DNA from: a virus
Taxonomy: Duplodnaviria; Heunggongvirae; Uroviricota; Caudoviricetes
Length of the DNA: 64,000 nucleotides
IMG/VR virus record: IMGVR_UViG_2850808358_000005
Direction: 5' to 3' (one strand)
Shown piece by piece: positions 20,310 through 55,377 of this stretch. The notes under the pieces were generated by a model. That model was given only the letters and a program-made list of their open reading frames with translations, did no database searches and was not told the origin of the DNA. The position numbers were made by a program, and so were the translations under genes. Within the stretch, counting starts at the first letter, position 1. The number at the start of each line of letters is the position of its first letter.

Positions 20310-20850
20310 CTTTATCCCTCACAACATGGGTAATAGCTCTGCGATATTGCCCGGTGTCAATTAATGGTTTCGCCAGATCGGTTCCGGGAGATTCGCCAGC
20401 AGCGCGCCGGGCAAGTTCCAGTGTTGCCCCCTTGCGCCCCCGACGAGCCCGGGCTTCAACAGTGCTGTCAGCAAGCGGCGTAAAGCCGGTAATGGTCATG
20501 TAACGCCTGACGCCATTAGCGGCCAGCGTTCCGGCACGGTTGAGTGCGCGTTCTGCTCCCGCAGCATTACCATCAAGTGCAGCCTGCGCCGCGGCTTTGA
20601 GCTGCGGCACCGTCTGCTCTTCTGCCGATTTAACGCCGGGGACCAGGTGAGGTCGTGGCGGGATGTTCTGCTCTGGTGAGCCGTATTCGTTGAGGTAACC
20701 GATGCCCGCATTACCAAACGGAACATCATCCCGCCCGCTGTCTTCCGAAGGGATGCCGACCAGCACATCTTTTTTGGTTAACGACCTGAGCGCATCCAGA
20801 ATGGCCTTAGCGTTATCCACCCTCGTTGTTACACCGCTTTTGAAACTCAT
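20296..20850 (-). CDS. Phage structural protein, hypothetical
   Basis: 184-aa ORF. Confidence 0.35.
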
Positions 20851-44610: not shown

Positions 44611-45019
44611 AATCTATGGCGCTTTTTCAACGAGCAATAAACACACAGGCCTATCTAAAAGCAGGAATTATGGGGTTTGCTGGCGACGGCAAAACCTACA
44701 CAGCAAGCGAACTGGCTATTGGTCTGGTAATGCTTATGCGGCAACGGGGAATTGAAGCTGGTAACCGCCCGGTAATGTTTCTGGACACAGAAACAGGCTC
44801 TGACTGGGTTAAACCCCGCTTTGATGCGGAAAATATCGAATTATTTACGGCAAAAACCCGCTCGTTTGTTGATCTGCTTGAAGCCATTAATGAAGCGGAA
44901 AGCAGCGGTTCCGTAATGATCATCGACTCCATCAGTCACTTCTGGACCGGATTATGCGACGAGTATGCCAGACGCCGAAACCGTAAACGAGGACTGGAAT
45001 TTTCAGACTGGGCGTGGCT

Positions 45020-46284
45020 TGAGGTGTACTGGCAATAGCGGACACTACCATTTGTTCTTTTTTTAAGCAGCCATCTGATGATATTTTTCCCTGAAGGCTG
45101 CCGGGGAGATATTCCCCAGACGAGAGTGACGACGCTGACGATTGTAGAAAATCTCAATGTATTCCCGTATTACTGAGATGGCTTCATCCCGGTTATTAAA
45201 ACGATAGTGGCTCAGGCTCTCATTTTTCAGCGTTCCCCAGAAGCTTTCCATCGGAGCGTTGTCGTAACAGTTACCTTTACGCGACATTGATGTTTTCAGA
45301 CCAAACTGCTCCTGTATGACCCGGTAATCGTATGCGCAGTACTGTGAACCTCGATCAGAGTGGTGGATTAGCCCGGCAGGTGGGCGCTGGCTCCTGAGCG
45401 CCATAAACAGGGCTTTACCTGTCAGCTCTTTTGTCATGCGCTCTCCCATGGCGTAGCCGACAATTTCGCACGTATAAACATCTTTGATGCCAGCGAGGTA
45501 CAACCATCCCTCCTGTGTGGCAACATACGTCAGGTCCGCCACCCAGACCTGATTTGGTGCTGTAGGAGCGAACGTCTGGTTCAGCAGATTTGGCGCAACT
45601 GGCAGATTGTGGTTCGGGTTCGTAGTCGCTCTGAACTTGCGTTTCTGCTTACAGCGTAGCCTTAGCTCCTTACGAAGACGTGCCAGTCGGTCACGACCAA
45701 CGATGATGCCATTCTCTGCCAGCTCCGTCTGGAGCCGCCGGGTTCCATATGTTTCGCGAGTGCGGATATGTGCCACCTTAATCTCCAGTTTTAGCCGCTC
45801 ATCACTTTGTTTTCTGTCTGAGGGTTCATGCTGTACCCAGTTGTAATAACCGCTCCTGGATACACCAAATACCTGACACATAGCTTCAATGGGAAATTGT
45901 TGTCGCCATTGTTCGATTAACGCGTATTTTTCAGCGACTCCTGTGCAAAATACGCTGTTGCTTTTTTTTAATATATCTCGCTCAAGGCGAGCTTCATTTA
46001 ACGCCTTACGCAGTTGCAGAATTTCAGATTCCAGTTCAGCCACCGTGCGGGAACCAGGAGTACCGAGCCCTTTTCTGGCGGCGGTAACCCATTGTCCTAA
46101 AGTGCCTTCAGGAAGGGATAATCGGGAAGCGCCTTCACTGATCGAAAGTTGATTTTCAAGAACCGTTCTGACAGCTTCGGCTTTGAACTCTTTAGAGTAA
46201 CGTTGGGTTTTTCTGCTCATTATTAGCTCCTTCTGATGCCATTCTATTTCAGGAAGGAGTGTCCGTTAAACTCAGGCTACCTCA
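45020..46284 (-). mobile_element. IS600 copy 3, 1265 bp, TSD GCT
   Basis: Ends as other copies; GCT at 45017..45019 and 46285..46287; one extra A in the slippery run. Confidence 0.9.
45063..46220 (-). CDS. IS600 fused OrfAB transposase (in-frame fusion)
   Basis: 385-aa continuous ORF; A8 (45962..45969) versus A7 in the other four copies. Confidence 0.8.
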   Translation of the reverse strand: MSRKTQRYSKEFKAEAVRTVLENQLSISEGASRLSLPEGTLGQWVTAARKGLGTPGSRTVAELESEILQLRKALNEARLERDILKKSNSVFCTGVAEKYALIEQWRQQFPIEAMCQVFGVSRSGYYNWVQHEPSDRKQSDERLKLEIKVAHIRTRETYGTRRLQTELAENGIIVGRDRLARLRKELRLRCKQKRKFRATTNPNHNLPVAPNLLNQTFAPTAPNQVWVADLTYVATQEGWLYLAGIKDVYTCEIVGYAMGERMTKELTGKALFMALRSQRPPAGLIHHSDRGSQYCAYDYRVIQEQFGLKTSMSRKGNCYDNAPMESFWGTLKNESLSHYRFNNRDEAISVIREYIEIFYNRQRRHSRLGNISPAAFREKYHQMAA

Positions 46285-47020
46285 GCTCAAACAGGAGTGG
46301 CGACGCTTTACCGATCGATTTGTTAACAGTCAGGCGCACATTATTATGTGCGGGCGTGCAGGATATGAGTATGACTTTTTCGAAGGTGATGATGGCAAAC
46401 GCCAGTTGGCAAAAACCGGTATAAAAATGAAAGCAGAAACAGAAACCGGTTATGAACCCTCCATCCTGATCCAGATGGAGAAGCAAATGAACATAGAAAC
46501 CGGTCAGGTGTGGCGCACCGCCAGAATACTAAAAGATCGCTCCACCCGTATTGATGGACAGGTATTTTCAAACCCAACATTTAAAAACTTTCTTCCTCAT
46601 ATCGAGTTTCTTAACCTGGGAGGTGAACACCTCGGCATCGATACCTCACGGGATAACAGTGAATTATTTGCCAACGACGGTACACCGACATGGCTAAAAG
46701 AAAAGCGTGCAAAAGAAATCGCACTTGATGAAATTATCGAGTTGCTCAACAAGCACCATGGGGGCACCAGTAACGACGCCAAACGCGCAAAAGCTGATTT
46801 GCTGGAAAAAACATTCACCTCCCGCTCATGGGAAAGAATCAAAGGTATGGACTGGCCGACAATCAAAGCTGGTCGTAATGCACTATGGATTGAACTGGAA
46901 GGCGTTGAATATGCATTCCCGGATCCACAAACACAAAACGAAACGCAACAAGCAGGATACGATGAGAATATTCCGGTGTAAAACCAAGTGCATTTTTGGA
47001 AAATATTAATGGAGGTGTTC

Positions 47021-48687: not shown

Positions 48688-48788
48688 AAAAAGACCGGAA
48701 TACAGAAATTCGAGTAAATTTCGGGGAATTTCGGGGGAGACATTTGCAACTAATTGATTTCAAATGCAATTAAAAAAAGACCGAATAC
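48688..48788. repeat. Candidate att core repeats AAAAAGACCG(G)AATAC
   Basis: Motif at 48688..48703 and 48774..48788; degenerate copy at 793..807 at the start of the first ipaH repeat. Confidence 0.35.
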
Positions 48789-49242
48789 GATTCCTGTTTT
48801 CGTCAACAAACAATAAAACCCTTTAAAATTAATGCGTTGAATAAATTTACGTTCATCTTTTAATCCCTGGCACGTACCATTGCATATTAATACATTCAAC
48901 CAGTTACCATTTTTTTCGAGTTTTTTAGAGAAATTTTCGGGAATATTTCAGGTCAATCCATGCAGACGCAAGCAATTCCTGTATTGAATAATTCCGTAGC
49001 AATTATGTAAAATCATCTCCGGCTGATTTTCATTCAAACTCGCGCTATCGAACATCCATCAGCCAGCCGTGGCACGTTCTTGCATACGACGTGCTACGGT
49101 TTCCTTTACGATTTGGGGTTGCGACTTTACCTCTATTGATAATGCATTCCGGCAGAACGTTCAAATATGAAGTACGATGTTTAACTAACCGAAAAACAAG
49201 AACAATACGGTGCAAGCAAGCTATTCACAGTTAACTGAAACA

Positions 49243-49259
49243 GTATCGTTTTTTTACAG
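49243..49259 (+). promoter_or_regulatory. MxiE box, second copy
   Basis: GTATCGTTTTTTTACAG identical to the first copy. Confidence 0.8.
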
Positions 49260-49378
49260 CCAATTTTGTTTGTCCTTTTATAATAAAAAAGTTATGAAGT
49301 TCATTTCATGGAATGAACTTCATAAAAACTCCTACTTATTTCTTTTAACAAAGCCATTTGTCCATCGGCTTTAACTGA

Positions 49379-51094
49379 ATGTCCATCATGTTACCGATAA
49401 ATAATAACTTTTCATTGTCCCAAAATTCTTTTTATAACACTATTTCCGGTACATATGCTGATTACTTTTCAGCATGGGATAAATGGGAAAAACAAGCGCT
49501 CCCCGGTGAAAATCGGAATGAAGCGGTCTCCCTACTTAAAGAATGTCTCATCAATCAGTTCAGTGAGCTTCAACTGAATCGTTTAAATCTGTCCTCGCTA
49601 CCTGACAACTTACCACCTCAAATCACTGTTCTGGAAATTACTCAGAATGCCCTAATATCATTACCAGAATTGCCAGCATCGCTGGAATACCTTGACGCCT
49701 GTGACAATCACCTGTCAACACTTCCTGAATTACCCGCATCTCTGAAACATCTTGATGTAGATAACAACCAACTAACCATGCTTCCTGAATTGCCTGCATT
49801 GCTGGAATATATTAATGCAGATAACAATCAGCTAACCATGCTTCCTGAATTACCTACATCGCTGGAAGTGCTCTCAGTAAGAAATAACCAGCTGACATTT
49901 CTCCCTGAGTTACCTGAATCACTGGAAGCGCTCGATGTAAGTACTAATCTTCTGGAAAGCCTACCAGCCGTACCTGTAAGAAATCATCACTCAGAGGAAA
50001 CCGAGATATTTTTCCGGTGCCGCGAGAATCGCATCACACACATTCCGGAAAATATACTTAGCCTTGATCCGACCTGCACTATCATCCTCGAAGACAATCC
50101 TCTGTCCTCACGGATCAGGGAGTCTCTGTCGCAACAAACCGCCCAACCGGACTACCACGGCCCACGGATTTACTTCTCCATGAGTGACGGACAACAGAAT
50201 ACACTCCATCGCCCCCTGGCTGATGCCGTGACAGCATGGTTCCCGGAAAACAAACAATCTGATGTATCACAGATATGGCATGCTTTTGAACATGAAGAGC
50301 ACGCCAACACCTTTTCCGCGTTCCTTGACCGCCTTTCCGATACCGTCTCTGCACGCAATACCTCCGGATTCCGTGAACAGGTCGCTGCATGGCTGGAAAA
50401 ACTCAGTGCCTCTGCGGAGCTTCGACAGCAGTCTTTCGCTGTTGCTGCTGATGCCACTGAGAGCTGTGAGGACCGTGTCGCGCTCACATGGAACAATCTC
50501 CGGAAAACCCTCCTGGTCCATCAGGCATCTGAAGGCCTTTTCGATAATGATACCGGCGCTCTGCTCTCCCTGGGCAGGGAAATGTTCCGCCTCGAAATTC
50601 TGGAGGACATTGCCCGGGATAAAGTCAGAACTCTCCATTTTGTGGATGAGATAGAAGTCTACCTGGCCTTCCAGACCATGCTCGCAGAGAAACTTCAGCT
50701 CTCCACTGCCGTGAAGGAAATGCGTTTCTATGGCGTGTCGGGAGTGACAGCAAATGACCTCCGCACTGCCGAAGCCATGGTCAGAAGCCGTGAAGAGAAT
50801 GAATTTACGGACTGGTTCTCCCTCTGGGGACCATGGCATGCTGTACTGAAGCGTACGGAAGCTGACCGCTGGGCGCTGGCAGAAGAGCAGAAATATGAGA
50901 TGCTGGAGAATGAGTACCCTCAGAGGGTGGCTGACCGGCTGAAAGCATCAGGTCTGAGCGGTGATGCGGATGCGGAGAGGGAAGCCGGTGCACAGGTGAT
51001 GCGTGAGACTGAACAGCAGATTTACCGTCAGCTGACTGACGAGGTACTGGCCCTGCGATTGCCTGAAAACGGCTCACAACTGCACCATTCATAA
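49379..51094 (+). CDS. ipaH: IpaH-family type III effector, second identical copy
   Basis: 571-aa product identical to 1400..3115. Confidence 0.95.
   Translation: MSIMLPINNNFSLSQNSFYNTISGTYADYFSAWDKWEKQALPGENRNEAVSLLKECLINQFSELQLNRLNLSSLPDNLPPQITVLEITQNALISLPELPASLEYLDACDNHLSTLPELPASLKHLDVDNNQLTMLPELPALLEYINADNNQLTMLPELPTSLEVLSVRNNQLTFLPELPESLEALDVSTNLLESLPAVPVRNHHSEETEIFFRCRENRITHIPENILSLDPTCTIILEDNPLSSRIRESLSQQTAQPDYHGPRIYFSMSDGQQNTLHRPLADAVTAWFPENKQSDVSQIWHAFEHEEHANTFSAFLDRLSDTVSARNTSGFREQVAAWLEKLSASAELRQQSFAVAADATESCEDRVALTWNNLRKTLLVHQASEGLFDNDTGALLSLGREMFRLEILEDIARDKVRTLHFVDEIEVYLAFQTMLAEKLQLSTAVKEMRFYGVSGVTANDLRTAEAMVRSREENEFTDWFSLWGPWHAVLKRTEADRWALAEEQKYEMLENEYPQRVADRLKASGLSGDADAEREAGAQVMRETEQQIYRQLTDEVLALRLPENGSQLHHS
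49600..49969 (+). repeat. LRR-encoding tandem DNA repeats in the second ipaH
   Basis: Same as first copy. Confidence 0.7.
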
Positions 51095-51602
51095 TCACAT
51101 CGCATAAACCACAGACCGGACTGACTCCGGAAAAACAGAGGCCCGCCCCCGGGCCTCCCCGGATTCATCCGTTTCCCTGTTCAGCCTGACAGCACGCCCC
51201 GGCGGCCGGATGACAGACTCCGCTTCGGTAAGCAAAGCGGTCTTCTGTGATTCCGCCAGTTGCGGCTTATTCATTACTCAACGTCAAACGCCCGAATTGA
51301 AGCCAAATCATCCAGACTGCTCAGCTCCTCTTTCATCTCCCGCTGACGGCGATAAATCTCATCGTTGCGATCGACCTGCGCCTGCACCATTGCTGCCGCC
51401 AGTTCTTCCAGTTCCGGCATCGACAGTTTCACCTGCTGATTATCGGCATCGCTCCACGCCATATGCGTTTGTGCTGTGACAGATTTTGCCAGCATGACTA
51501 CCGGGGACAGGCGGCCCAGTGAGTCGGGGCCAGCATTCTGAGGTAGCCTGAGTTTAACGGACACTCCTTCCTGAAATAGAATGGCATCAGAAGGAGCTAA
51601 TA

Positions 51603-51905
51603 ATGAGCAGAAAAACCCAACGTTACTCTAAAGAGTTCAAAGCCGAAGCTGTCAGAACGGTTCCTGAAAATCAACTTTCGATCAGTGAAGGCGCTTCCCG
51701 ATTATCCCTTCCTGAAGGCACTTTAGGACAATGGGTTACCGCCGCCAGAAAAGGGCTCGGTACTCCTGGTTCCCGCACGGTGGCTGAACTGGAATCTGAA
51801 ATTCTGCAACTGCGTAAGGCGTTAAATGAAGCTCGCCTTGAGCGAGATATATTAAAAAAAGCAACAGCGTATTTTGCACAGGAGTCGCTGAAAAATACGC
51901 GTTAA
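51603..51905 (+). CDS. IS600 OrfA
   Basis: 100 aa (one substitution RTVPENQ). Confidence 0.9.
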   Translation: MSRKTQRYSKEFKAEAVRTVPENQLSISEGASRLSLPEGTLGQWVTAARKGLGTPGSRTVAELESEILQLRKALNEARLERDILKKATAYFAQESLKNTR

Positions 51906-51940
51906 TCGAACAATGGCGACAACAATTTCCCATTGAAGCG

Positions 51941-52759
51941 ATGTGTCAGGTATTTGGTGTATCCAGGAGCGGTTATTACAACCGGGTACAGCATGAACCC
52001 TCAGACAGAAAACAAAGTGATGAGCGGCTAAAACTGGAGATTAAGGTGGCACATATCCGCACTCGCGAAACATATGGAACCCGGCGGCTCCAGACGGAGC
52101 TGGCAGAGAATGGCATCATCGTTGGTCGTGACCGACTGGCACGTCTTCGTAAGGAGCTAAGGCTACGCTGTAAGCAGAAACGCAAGTTCAGAGCGACTAC
52201 GAACCCGAACCACAATCTGCCAGTTGCGCCAAATCTGCTGAACCAGACGTTCGCTCCTACAGCACCAAATCAGGTCTGGGTGGCGGACCTGACGTATGTT
52301 GCCACACAGGAGGGATGGTTGTACCTCGCTGGCATCAAAGATGTTTATACGTGCGAAATTGTCGGCTACGCCATGGGAGAGCGCATGACAAAAGAGCTGA
52401 CAGGTAAAGCCCTGTTTATGGCGCTCAGGAGCCAGCGCCCACCTGCCGGGCTAATCCACCACTCTGATCGAGGTTCACAGTACTGCGCATACGATTACCG
52501 GGTCATACAGGAGCAGTTTGGTCTGAAAACATCAATGTCGCGTAAAGGTAACTGTTACGACAACGCTCCGATGGAAAGCTTCTGGGGAACGCTGAAAAAT
52601 GAGAGCCTGAGCCACTATCGTTTTAATAACCGGGATGAAGCCATCTCAGTAATACGGGAATACATTGAGATTTTCTACAATCGTCAGCGTCGTCACTCTC
52701 GTCTGGGGAATATCTCCCCGGCAGCCTTCAGGGAAAAATATCATCAGATGGCTGCTTAA
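51941..52759 (+). CDS. IS600 OrfB transposase
   Basis: 272 aa. Confidence 0.9.
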   Translation: MCQVFGVSRSGYYNRVQHEPSDRKQSDERLKLEIKVAHIRTRETYGTRRLQTELAENGIIVGRDRLARLRKELRLRCKQKRKFRATTNPNHNLPVAPNLLNQTFAPTAPNQVWVADLTYVATQEGWLYLAGIKDVYTCEIVGYAMGERMTKELTGKALFMALRSQRPPAGLIHHSDRGSQYCAYDYRVIQEQFGLKTSMSRKGNCYDNAPMESFWGTLKNESLSHYRFNNRDEAISVIREYIEIFYNRQRRHSRLGNISPAAFREKYHQMAA

Positions 52760-53114
52760 AAAAAGAACAAATGGTAGTGTCCGCTATTGCCAGTACACCT
52801 CATTCCAGACACGACCGTTCCATTCAAACGTGAACGGCTTCGCCTCCTGTTCTGTGCGCCATGCTTCAATTTCCTGACGTCTGGCCTCTCTGGCCGCTTC
52901 CAGCATTTCTGGTGTCACAGTGAATGGGGCTATCTCACCCCATTTGCCACTTTGCAGTTCCTGCCAGATTTGCTGACCCGTCGGTGCGACATCATCAGCG
53001 GTGGCTGTGTAGGGGACTGCCTGGTCTCTGTCGTCAAAAAAAACGTCACAGTCTACTGCGCCACTTTCGGTATAACGGGGATTAATGATTTTTTTAATTT
53101 CCACGGTGCATTCC

Positions 53115-54113
53115 TCACGATGTGCGAATAAAAAGCCCGGGCATTGCGCCAGAGACATGTGCATCCGGCACCCCGGACAGGGCGCAATATGACCCCGGTA
53201 ATGAATGCTCTGAACATCCCGTAATGAAAAATTGTGGGGATGCTATATACGTTCCGGTGGGAGTACTGGGCACTGAAATCCCCACCGGTCCCAGTCGTGA
53301 GCCTCTGTATGACAGCCCCCTGACAAGTCTGATGACTTTATCACCGTCAGCTTCTCCCTGGTACGCAGCAATAATCAGCCCGCCAATGTCAGGGTCTCCC
53401 CATCTGTTGCGGACAGAGCTCGCCACGATTCTGTAAATAATATCTTCTGTGGTTATATTTATTTTCACCCAGTCAGTCTGGATATGGGCCAGTAGCAGTA
53501 GCGGGTGTGATAAATGGGGCCGTTAATGCCGTAAAAAGTAAGGGATTTGGCTCTGTACCGCGGTTCTATTGTCTCAGGGTGTGCATCAGTCCACCGGATG
53601 CTGAGCACCCCTTCAAACCGTGTGTCGGGTATGATGCCCTGGCGGCCAGCAACGGAATACTCACCTGGCAGCGCATTCCTTACCCAGGCCAGGAAATCAC
53701 TCTTAGTGTCAAAACGGATAACATCTTCAGGCAGAAAAGCACACCCAAAGCCGAATGCGCCGGGTATCGCCAGACGGCCTTTTGTCCGGTCGTAAATGTC
53801 GCTCTGTGCTTCCATCGTGGCCGCACTTTTCAGCCCCAGATTATCCCGGGACTTCTGTTGTGCCTTTTCGCCTGCTGCTGCGATTTCAGACAGATGGTTA
53901 GCCGTTTTCAGAGTGCCGGTCAGCGCAGCATCAATGTCATTTTTGGCCTGTTCTGCTGCGCGGGCATAACCTGCGGCTGCCTGTGCACGCTGACCGGATA
54001 AGACGGCGTTTTTCCCCGTGCTTTTCACGTCTTCCGCTGTGGCCTTTCTGTTCTCAGCTGTGACGGTTGCATCCTGTCGGGCTTTCTCCGCAAAACGTTG
54101 TGCATCATCACGG
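53115..54113 (-). pseudogene. Side tail-fibre gene fragment, 5'-truncated by IS600 copy 5, internal stop
   Basis: ORFs 53465..54145 and 53115..53468 share ...AAAGYARAAEQAKNDIDAALTGTLKT... with 5495..6400. Confidence 0.6.
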
Positions 54114-54156
54114 TGAGGTGTACTGGCAATAGCGGACACTACCATTTGTTCTTTTT

Positions 54157-54975
54157 TTAAGCAGCCATCTGATGATATTTTTCCCTGAAGGCTGCCGGGG
54201 AGATATTCCCCAGACGAGAGTGACGACGCTGACGATTGTAGAAAATCTCAATGTATTCCCGTATTACTGAGATGGCTTCATCCCGGTTATTAAAACGATA
54301 GTGGCTCAGGCTCTCATTTTTCAGCGTTCCCCAGAAGCTTTCCATCGGAGCGTTGTCGTAACAGTTACCTTTACGCGACATTGATGTTTTCAGACCAAAC
54401 TGCTCCTGTATGACCCGGTAATCGTATGCGCAGTACTGTGAACCTCGATCAGAGTGGTGGATTAGCCCGGCAGGTGGGCGCTGGCTCCTGAGCGCCATAA
54501 ACAGGGCTTTACCTGTCAGCTCTTTTGTCATGCGCTCTCCCATGGCGTAGCCGACAATTTCGCACGTATAAACATCTTTGATGCCAGCGAGGTACAACCA
54601 TCCCTCCTGTGTGGCAACATACGTCAGGTCCGCCACCCAGACCTGATTTGGTGCTGTAGGAGCGAACGTCTGGTTCAGCAGATTTGGCGCAACTGGCAGA
54701 TTGTGGTTCGGGTTCGTAGTCGCTCTGAACTTGCGTTTCTGCTTACAGCGTAGCCTTAGCTCCTTACGAAGACGTGCCAGTCGGTCACGACCAACGATGA
54801 TGCCATTCTCTGCCAGCTCCGTCTGGAGCCGCCGGGTTCCATATGTTTCGCGAGTGCGGATATGTGCCACCTTAATCTCCTGTTTTAGCCGCTCATCACT
54901 TTGTTTTCTGTCTGAGGGTTCATGCTGTACCCGGTTGTAATAACCGCTCCTGGATACACCAAATACCTGACACAT
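54157..54975 (-). CDS. IS600 OrfB transposase
   Basis: 272 aa (ERLKQEIKV variant). Confidence 0.9.
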   Translation of the reverse strand: MCQVFGVSRSGYYNRVQHEPSDRKQSDERLKQEIKVAHIRTRETYGTRRLQTELAENGIIVGRDRLARLRKELRLRCKQKRKFRATTNPNHNLPVAPNLLNQTFAPTAPNQVWVADLTYVATQEGWLYLAGIKDVYTCEIVGYAMGERMTKELTGKALFMALRSQRPPAGLIHHSDRGSQYCAYDYRVIQEQFGLKTSMSRKGNCYDNAPMESFWGTLKNESLSHYRFNNRDEAISVIREYIEIFYNRQRRHSRLGNISPAAFREKYHQMAA

Positions 54976-55010
54976 CGCTTCAATGGGAAATTGTTGTCGC
55001 CATTGTTCGA

Positions 55011-55313
55011 TTAACGCGTATTTTTCAGCGACTCCTGTGCAAAATACGCTGTTGCTTTTTTTAATATATCTCGCTCAAGGCGAGCTTCATTTAACGCCTT
55101 ACGCAGTTGCAGAATTTCAGATTCCAGTTCAGCCACCGTGCGGGAACCAGGAGTACCGAGCCCTTTTCTGGCGGCGGTAACCCATTGTCCTAAAGTGCCT
55201 TCAGGAAGGGATAATCGGGAAGCGCCTTCACTGATCGAAAGTTGATTTTCAAGAACCGTTCTGACAGCTTCGGCTTTGAACTCTTTAGAGTAACGTTGGG
55301 TTTTTCTGCTCAT
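55011..55313 (-). CDS. IS600 OrfA
   Basis: 100 aa. Confidence 0.9.
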   Translation of the reverse strand: MSRKTQRYSKEFKAEAVRTVLENQLSISEGASRLSLPEGTLGQWVTAARKGLGTPGSRTVAELESEILQLRKALNEARLERDILKKATAYFAQESLKNTR

Positions 55314-55377
55314 TATTAGCTCCTTCTGATGCCATTCTATTTCAGGAAGGAGTGTCCGTTAAACTCAGGCTACCTCA

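Follow-up and report, generated by a model that had tools for sequence, protein, structure and literature searches.

The 64,000-nucleotide (nt) stretch of DNA analyzed here, referred to throughout as the window, is IMG/VR virus record IMGVR_UViG_2850808358_000005 and corresponds to positions 1,100,325-1,164,324 of chromosome CP026877.1 of Shigella boydii ATCC 35964 (assembly GCA_002950035.1), two loci of which, 7158 and 6423 nt long, match the window at 100%. It carries five copies of the insertion sequence (IS) IS600, as found by a 21-nt probe ending in the A tract at the junction of orfA and orfB (with no matches in shuffled sequences), by repeat analysis, and by direct comparison. Four of these copies are 1264 nt long and have seven A's in that tract (A7), whereas copy 3 alone is 1265 nt long and has eight (A8). 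The original prediction for this DNA, made from the letters alone, had given five copies, their run lengths and coordinates, and a single open reading frame (ORF) of 385 amino acids (aa) in copy 3, all of which were correct when the sequence was rechecked; its statements that the four A7 copies keep separate OrfA and OrfB ORFs and that A8 joins orfA and orfB in one frame were likewise borne out, the latter by the 385-aa ORF. The features under discussion are collected in Table 1.

Table 1. Copy 3 of IS600, its insertion site, and the other IS600 copies, in window coordinates.
Feature	Position	Strand	Remarks
IS600 copy 3, A8, complete, 1265 base pairs (bp)	45020-46284	-	Target duplication GCT
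Continuous orfAB, 385 aa	46220->45063	-	Single ORF; exact protein in NCBI is WP_134796079.1
A8 tract (A_AAA_AAA slippery heptamer plus one A)	45962-45969	-	T8 on the plus strand; A7 in the other four copies
Predicted frameshift-stimulating hairpin 3' of the tract	45919-45959	-	Strong stem 45947-45955 pairs with 45922-45930; RNA fold z = -1.9 over a 106-nt stretch
UGA that would end a -1 slip on A8	45931-45933	-	From third-frame translation; 96-aa OrfA-like product = 86 aa + KQQRILHRSR
Promoter-like site TTAACG-17-TAGAAT in the left inverted repeat	46241-46269	-	Upstream of the ATG at 46220; 9/12 consensus match
Target duplication GCT, first copy	45017-45019	.	Flanks copy 3
Target duplication GCT, second copy	46285-46287	.	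Flanks copy 3
AAA-family ATPase gene, 5' part	44616-45019	+	Prophage gene split by copy 3; downstream of recE and gam
AAA-family ATPase gene, 3' part	46288-46981	+	Joined parts give a 365-aa ORF
IS600 copy 1, A7	4150-5413	-	A7 tract 5092-5098; target duplication CTC
IS600 copy 2, A7	8606-9869	+	A7 tract 8921-8927; target duplication GAG; 445T (W128) in common with copy 3
IS600 copy 4, A7	51539-52802	+	A7 tract 51854-51860; target duplication TTC; OrfA L21P
IS600 copy 5, A7	54114-55377	-	A7 tract 55056-55062; no target duplication (CGG/GTG); OrfB L32Q

The ends of copy 3, TGAGGTAGCC... and ...GTACACCTCA, form imperfect terminal inverted repeats of ~27 bp (5'-TGAGGT...ACCTCA-3', with TG...CA termini) that agree at ~18-19 of 27 positions when compared by eye. 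Its 385-aa ORF contains HTH_Tnp_1 (residues 3-75; Pfam E-value 1.9e-23), a leucine-zipper region, HTH_21 (140-196; 2.6e-13), and the rve DDE core (220-318; 5.9e-26), and matching elements in RefSeq E. coli and Shigella genomes are annotated 'IS3-like element IS600 family transposase'. The two overlapping ORFs with orfB in the -1 frame that are present in the four A7 copies were not found in copy 3; the cause is a change of one nucleotide, which does not take it out of the IS3 family, and by every structural test but that of out-of-frame ORFs, copy 3 is, judged from its sequence, an IS600 element (IS3 family, IS3 group).

Copy 3 is inserted among the early genes of a lambdoid prophage. Excising it in silico together with one GCT leaves the AAA-family ATPase ORF intact, and the empty site is represented by E. 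coli relatives that carry the uninterrupted gene in flanks 99.4-99.7% identical to those of the window. The element is antisense to the prophage early genes, and outside transcription is therefore unlikely to drive it. The promoter-like site in its left inverted repeat does no more than match the consensus, and sites of this kind are not more numerous than expected from shuffled sequence. With the tract normalized, just five positions vary across the five window copies. Relative to copy 1, copy 3 has the extra A and two single-nucleotide polymorphisms (SNPs), of which 402 G>T is synonymous and, within the window, private to copy 3, and 445 C>T (R128W) occurs in copies 3 and 2. Counted along copy 3 itself, the A8 tract occupies positions 316-323 and the 402T marker falls at 403.

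Sharma et al. (2014, PMC4066793) list the IS600 cluster (A_AAA_AAA_1, IS600, insM') among the true -1 frameshift sites, give its products as 100 and 385 aa, and name a stem-loop as the stimulator of the slip. Consistent with that listing, OrfA is 100 aa long in the A7 copies of the window, and the orfB frame spans 272 aa counted from its first ATG; the slippery heptamer A_AAA_AAA lies at codons 85-86 of the orfA frame. A -1 slip on A7 yields ...L84-K85-K86-S87-N88-S89..., which is identical to the zero-frame reading of A8 (...DILKK-SNSVF...), and the extra A therefore hard-wires the frameshift. On the minus strand, copy 3 reads ...GATATATT-AAAAAAAA-GCAACAGCG around the tract, with its eight A's at 45969..45962. 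As far as its letters tell, the ORF of copy 3 is the authentic OrfAB transframe protein of wild-type IS600.

In the A8 allele, the zero frame no longer specifies the 100-aa OrfA. Both the heptamer and the downstream hairpin are nevertheless intact, the spacer from the in-frame heptamer to the strong stem being 7 nt in A8 versus 6 nt in A7, and a -1 slip should therefore still give a truncated OrfA-like protein, for which third-frame translation predicts 96 aa. Slippage of RNA polymerase on A8 may also produce some A7 messenger RNA (mRNA), so that true OrfA would still be made; a run of eight is at or near the length at which such slippage turns productive in some bacteria. The original description of the copy 3 transposase as constitutively fused thus holds for its one continuous OrfAB frame, but not in the sense that OrfAB would be the only product, since heptamer and hairpin persist.

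Several lines of evidence indicate that the extra A is real. The exact 385-aa protein occurs at three places in CP026877.1, and the DNA has A8 at all three: near 1,145,344 (copy 3 of the window), 1,313,804, and 1,357,914. Gene calls in the searched collection list OrfA and OrfB apart for A7 copies, so a 385-aa call reflects contiguous DNA. These three copies are 100% identical over 1265 nt, 402T and 445T included, and lie in different contexts; the one at 1,313,804 is flanked by its own target duplication, TCC, and the one at 1,357,914 lacks a duplication (TGG/GTC). A set of 208 distinct IS600 copies, drawn from finished genomes, plasmids, proviruses, and metagenomes as well as from the window, was scored at positions 299, 402, and 445 and for tract length. 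In the order 299/tract/402/445, the A7 haplotypes were C/A7/G/T (179 copies), C/A7/G/C (16), and C/A7/T/C (2), and the A8 haplotypes C/A8/G/T (5), T/A8/G/C (3), and C/A8/T/T (3). The pair 402T+445T was confined to the three A8 copies of CP026877.1 and occurred in 0/197 A7 copies. We also considered 402T by itself as a private marker of A8, and rejected it on finding 402T with A7 on the R128 background in S. boydii CP026845.1 (two copies, L112 and L114); 402T therefore either arose before the A8 change or is unrelated to it.

A second A8 lineage is marked by 299T (L79F, in the leucine-zipper region) on the R128 background, and comprises three copies in IMG/VR proviruses of two genomes (L120, 6134-7398; L121, 8968-10232; L122, 7086-8350). 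299T was found in these copies only and in 0/197 A7 copies; position 299 lay outside the pattern used to scan for A7 copies, which means that the absence of 299T from A7 is no ascertainment effect. The base protein of this lineage is present on 6 contigs, with S. boydii accessions bearing four different prefixes. Among its sub-variants, one has S288P, which by our reading adjoins a catalytic Asp in the conserved HHSDRG motif, and another has L21P in the helix-turn-helix; two sub-variants are found on one 4,932,934-bp contig.

The original prediction had left room for a sequencing error, in which the locus is truly A7 and the extra A arises from long-read consensus calling. Runs of 7-8 A's are typical sites of indel error, and the sequence comes from a finished long-contig assembly whose accession range suggests a series shared with A8-bearing NZ_CP027351.1; that it was made from long reads is our presumption. 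Such an error would also fit the single A8 copies that appear sporadically on unrelated haplotypes, the absence of A8 from two exact-pattern scans (metagenome contigs, 0 versus 35 for the A7 control; species-representative genomes, 0 versus 42), and the single-base differences between the window and a close relative. These last emerged when a prophage from E. coli FDAARGOS_944, 99.75% identical to the window, was aligned with it over 23 kb, and are four single-base indels, all in G/C runs (window 20437, 21466, 28481, and 30622); three are intergenic, in GC-rich hairpins, with one G fewer in the window, and at 20437 the ORF is intact in the window and annotated as frameshifted in FDAARGOS_944. 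The same alignment was free of indels in A/T runs, and no frameshift in a coding region could be traced to the window. Also weighing against an error, tract length segregates with markers at distances of ~17 and 80 nt, across several loci and assemblies, so random consensus error is no explanation: a SNP ~80 nt off cannot cause a consensus error at the tract, three loci are identical over 1265 nt and couple A8 to a marker pair seen in no A7 copy, and the independent 299T lineage recurs across several S. boydii submissions. The insertion junction of copy 3 is reproduced at 100% in three short-read assemblies, whose contigs reach 27-53 nt into the IS before ending; SRR6049580, SRR1811640, and GCA_003572525.1 carry this junction. 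The linkage of A8 to particular haplotypes and the identity of copies at several loci thus largely exclude the error, which we regard as very unlikely, and, judged from assembled sequence, the A8 allele at copy 3 is very probably real.

The same prediction had proposed looking for A8 in other genomes, where it does occur, but rarely: 3 exact matches among 1333 full-length matches in finished E. coli records, 3 of 262 in PLSDB plasmids, and 3 in IMG/VR proviruses versus more than 120 A7. Look-ups of the OrfA and OrfB variants of the other window copies, used as comparators of copy number, mostly gave other genomes; their index missed the window's own copy 5, and counts taken from it are lower bounds. 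A8 is found on at least five distinct haplotypes and is therefore of recurrent origin; two of these (of at least five) are multi-copy in S. boydii. Tracts of six A's (A6), alleles that cannot produce OrfAB, also occur, and both A8 and A6 look like the expected slippage products of a 7-A run. One A6 allele is present at the same position in the near-identical E. coli O145:H28 strains RM12581 and RM13514, and is therefore inherited; many of the A6 plasmids (H113-H124) belong to one accession series of Shigella plasmids. We note in passing an exact IS600 A7 match on a 1380-nt contig of coverage 1.3 assigned to Streptomyces sp. UG1 (NZ_JBNGGG010000135.1), which is almost certainly enterobacterial contamination.

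A 385-aa IS600 protein in a database cannot by itself be taken as proof of A8, a use that we tried and rejected, given that the NCBI pipeline models A7 copies with ribosomal slippage. The conceptual proteins derived in this way from A7 copies (P0002-P0004 and P0010-P0015) read ...DIFKKSNS, whereas ...DILKKSNS is the reading of true A8 ORFs and of the real frameshift product. Annotation appears to place the slip one codon too early and so arrives at F84 in place of L84; this is a small systematic error, and it makes residue 84 (F versus L) a usable signature for telling modeled from true fusions. Pipelines label A8 copies as ordinary transposase genes, and such copies are hence overlooked, WP_134796079.1 standing unremarked in NCBI.

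Taken together, these observations lead us to a reading in which copy 3 would be a genuine, heritable replication-slippage mutant of IS600 that has gained one A (A7 to A8). In the wild-type element, most ribosomes stop after the 100-aa OrfA, and a minority, aided by the hairpin, slip by -1 and complete the 385-aa OrfAB. The extra A does in the DNA what the slip does at the ribosome, so that OrfAB would be the main product of ordinary translation, and a fraction of ribosomes would now slip from the OrfAB frame into the third frame to give the 96-aa OrfA-like protein, such that the ratio of OrfAB to OrfA is inverted and OrfA is not simply lost. The earlier claim that fused-frame copies make full-length transposase without frameshifting has precedents in the engineered one-base additions to IS2 and ISSau2, and needs amending in that a truncated OrfA-like product is still to be expected. 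After gaining A8, the element, with its intact ends and clean 3-bp duplication, would have produced two or more further copies of itself, identical in sequence, elsewhere on the chromosome.

What such a change would do to transposition can be judged from related elements. According to reviews of the IS3 family, how much transposition takes place is set by how much frameshifting there is; in IS3 and ISSau2, transposition is inhibited by OrfA and by OrfB. The IS911 transposase is ~200-fold more active in cis (PMC5009743), and a hard-wired chromosomal fusion of IS1 made >700-fold more transposase, raised its own transposition up to 900-fold, and raised that of a distant copy 21-fold (PMC12903888). 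By analogy, copy 3 should yield more OrfAB than the A7 copies do, and should chiefly promote its own copying; its presumed hyperactivity would take the form of faster self-copying of the A8 lineage, because A8 transposase would act mostly in cis, with at most a modest boost to A7 copies, and trans activation of other IS600 copies is probably minor. The three loci of the copy 3 haplotype fall within 214 kb (4.2%) of the 5.13-Mb chromosome, for which the chance with three random points is ~0.005, and this clustering suggests local hopping from one donor. We consider it probable, though well short of certain, that copy 3 is a natural, heritable A8 mutant that makes OrfAB by ordinary translation, acts mainly in cis to copy itself, and has spread to at least two more loci.

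A number of observations weigh against this reading. The inactivating A6 is at least as frequent as A8 (6 E. coli records and at least 12 plasmids, against 3 of each for A8), and there is therefore no sign of A8 enrichment; in each genome where A8 was seen, its copies were in the minority. Related genomes also contain A7 haplotypes in several identical copies, so three A8 copies alone are no proof of hyperactivity, and gene conversion rather than transposition could have spread the allele. The occurrence of 402T alone with A7 in CP026845.1 has been described above, and CP026877.1 itself holds another A8 copy on the R128 background (P0018), which would have to be explained by a second mutation, by recombination, or by an error in its sequence. 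Alternatively, A8 could be real but inconsequential, one mutated IS copy among the many in the genome, with a weak and possibly silenced promoter that gives too little mRNA for the joining of frames to have a measurable effect; its additional copies would then have arisen through transposase supplied by A7 elements or by gene conversion. The promoter-like site, with its partial match and chance-level frequency, and the antisense orientation of copy 3 relative to the prophage early genes agree with that explanation, as do the low copy number at which A8 lineages remain while A7 haplotypes multiply too, the equal or greater abundance of dead A6 alleles, and the S288P change in one A8-lineage copy, which by our reading lies beside a catalytic Asp and fits decay better than selection for activity. 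It is at odds, however, with the dependence of transposition on frameshift level in those IS3-family and IS1 elements that have been tested, with the strong activation of single chromosomal fused copies under their own promoter (PMC12903888), with the existence of two separate A8 lineages at three or more loci each, and with the confinement of the copy 3 lineage to 214 kb, which suggests hopping from an active donor. We accordingly hold an inconsequential A8 to be rather unlikely, while taking it seriously.

At the opposite extreme, the A8 copy could flood the cell with OrfAB and mobilize the A7 copies, driving IS600 expansion and rearrangement. The density of the window (five IS600 copies in 64 kb, one without a target duplication, and two inverted pairs) points to much IS600 activity and recombination and would fit such a driver, OrfAB supplied in trans works in laboratory assays of other IS3-family members, and the fused chromosomal IS1 did raise transposition of a distant copy 21-fold (PMC12903888). 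This proposal, which is close to the earlier suggestion that copy 3 acts in trans on the other copies, runs contrary to the cis preference of the IS3 family, ~200-fold in IS911 (PMC5009743). A8 keeps both the slippery site and the hairpin, the pausing signals on which that preference is believed to rest; related genomes are dense in IS600 yet their sampled copies are all A7; and the A8-bearing E. coli records do not have unusual IS600 counts (22 and 10 places). A trans-acting driver therefore seems highly improbable. A broader scheme would make the A7 tract, unusual in being all A where others have A6G, a mutational switch, in which recurrent, heritable de-repression to A8 by replication slippage and preferential self-copying could fuel bursts of IS600 in Shigella that are later tamed by changes such as L79F or S288P; its support lies in the two small multi-copy lineages, and we regard it as speculative and doubtful. 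Our preferred reading remains that of an A8 mutant that has mainly copied itself.

Some further features of the window concern the arrangement of its IS600 copies and the prophage around them. Copies 1 and 2 form an inverted pair around 3186 nt (window 4150-9869), and copies 4 and 5 another around 1311 nt (51539-55377); both arrangements are composite-transposon-like or invertible, and the absence of a target duplication at copy 5 suggests recombination between IS copies. A prophage segment of ~4 kb is present twice (792-6005 and 48771-53981) at 97-99.9% identity, with a distinct IS600 insertion in each, copy 1 in one and copy 4 in the other; the few differences between the two include C4/C5 run-length changes at 3166/51146 and 4067/53316. 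The prophage also carries a cluster of tRNA genes on the minus strand (31040-31350), namely Gly-tcc, Thr-tgt, Arg-tct, and a tRNA with a CAT anticodon that is Met according to ARAGORN and Ile according to the annotation of a close E. coli relative.

One hallmark of genome decay in Shigella is the expansion of IS elements, and the chief restraint on transposition in the IS3 family is considered to be programmed frameshifting. An allele found in nature without that restraint, and able to last and increase in number, would illustrate how readily it can be lost, one slippage event in a 7-A run being enough. The A8 lineage would in addition provide a marked, trackable system for measuring how far a transposase acts in cis and how far in trans within a real genome; if the allele is inert, it is a routine polymorphism only. 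IS600 itself is among five elements expanded in all Shigella species (PMC7373316). In the library that we searched, no paper was found in which IS600 is connected with OrfAB or in which fused alleles from nature are described.

Compared with the IS600 reference (1264 bp; insM' in E. coli K-12), copy 3 is alike in its ends, 3-bp duplication, and domains, and differs in its 1265-bp length, its single-frame OrfAB, and the loss of the 100-aa OrfA as a zero-frame product; copy 3 has ~99.7-99.8% nucleotide identity to the other window copies. The engineered changes of IS2 from A6G to A7G and of ISSau2 from A6G to A6G2 each add one base at the slippery motif, as in copy 3, and in the case of IS2 OrfAB became the principal product while an OrfA-sized protein was still formed by frameshifting (PMC3219604). 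In the engineered IS1Efs, the run was rewritten so that OrfAB is the main translation product, a state that copy 3 would reach by an added base. The IS2, ISSau2, and IS1 fusions are all laboratory constructs, often plasmid-borne with strong promoters; copy 3, unlike them, is natural and chromosomal, would depend on its own promoter, and has persisted and multiplied in a wild genome. IS1447 (A9) and other IS elements with A8 or A9 have, like copy 3, a long A tract between orfA and orfB (Baranov 2005), but in IS1447-type elements the DNA is out of frame and transcriptional slippage makes the fusion, whereas in copy 3 the DNA is in frame and slippage or frameshifting would break the fusion. Copy 3 is thus the natural counterpart of the laboratory fusions in IS2, ISSau2, and IS1, brought about by a small change to a well-known element.

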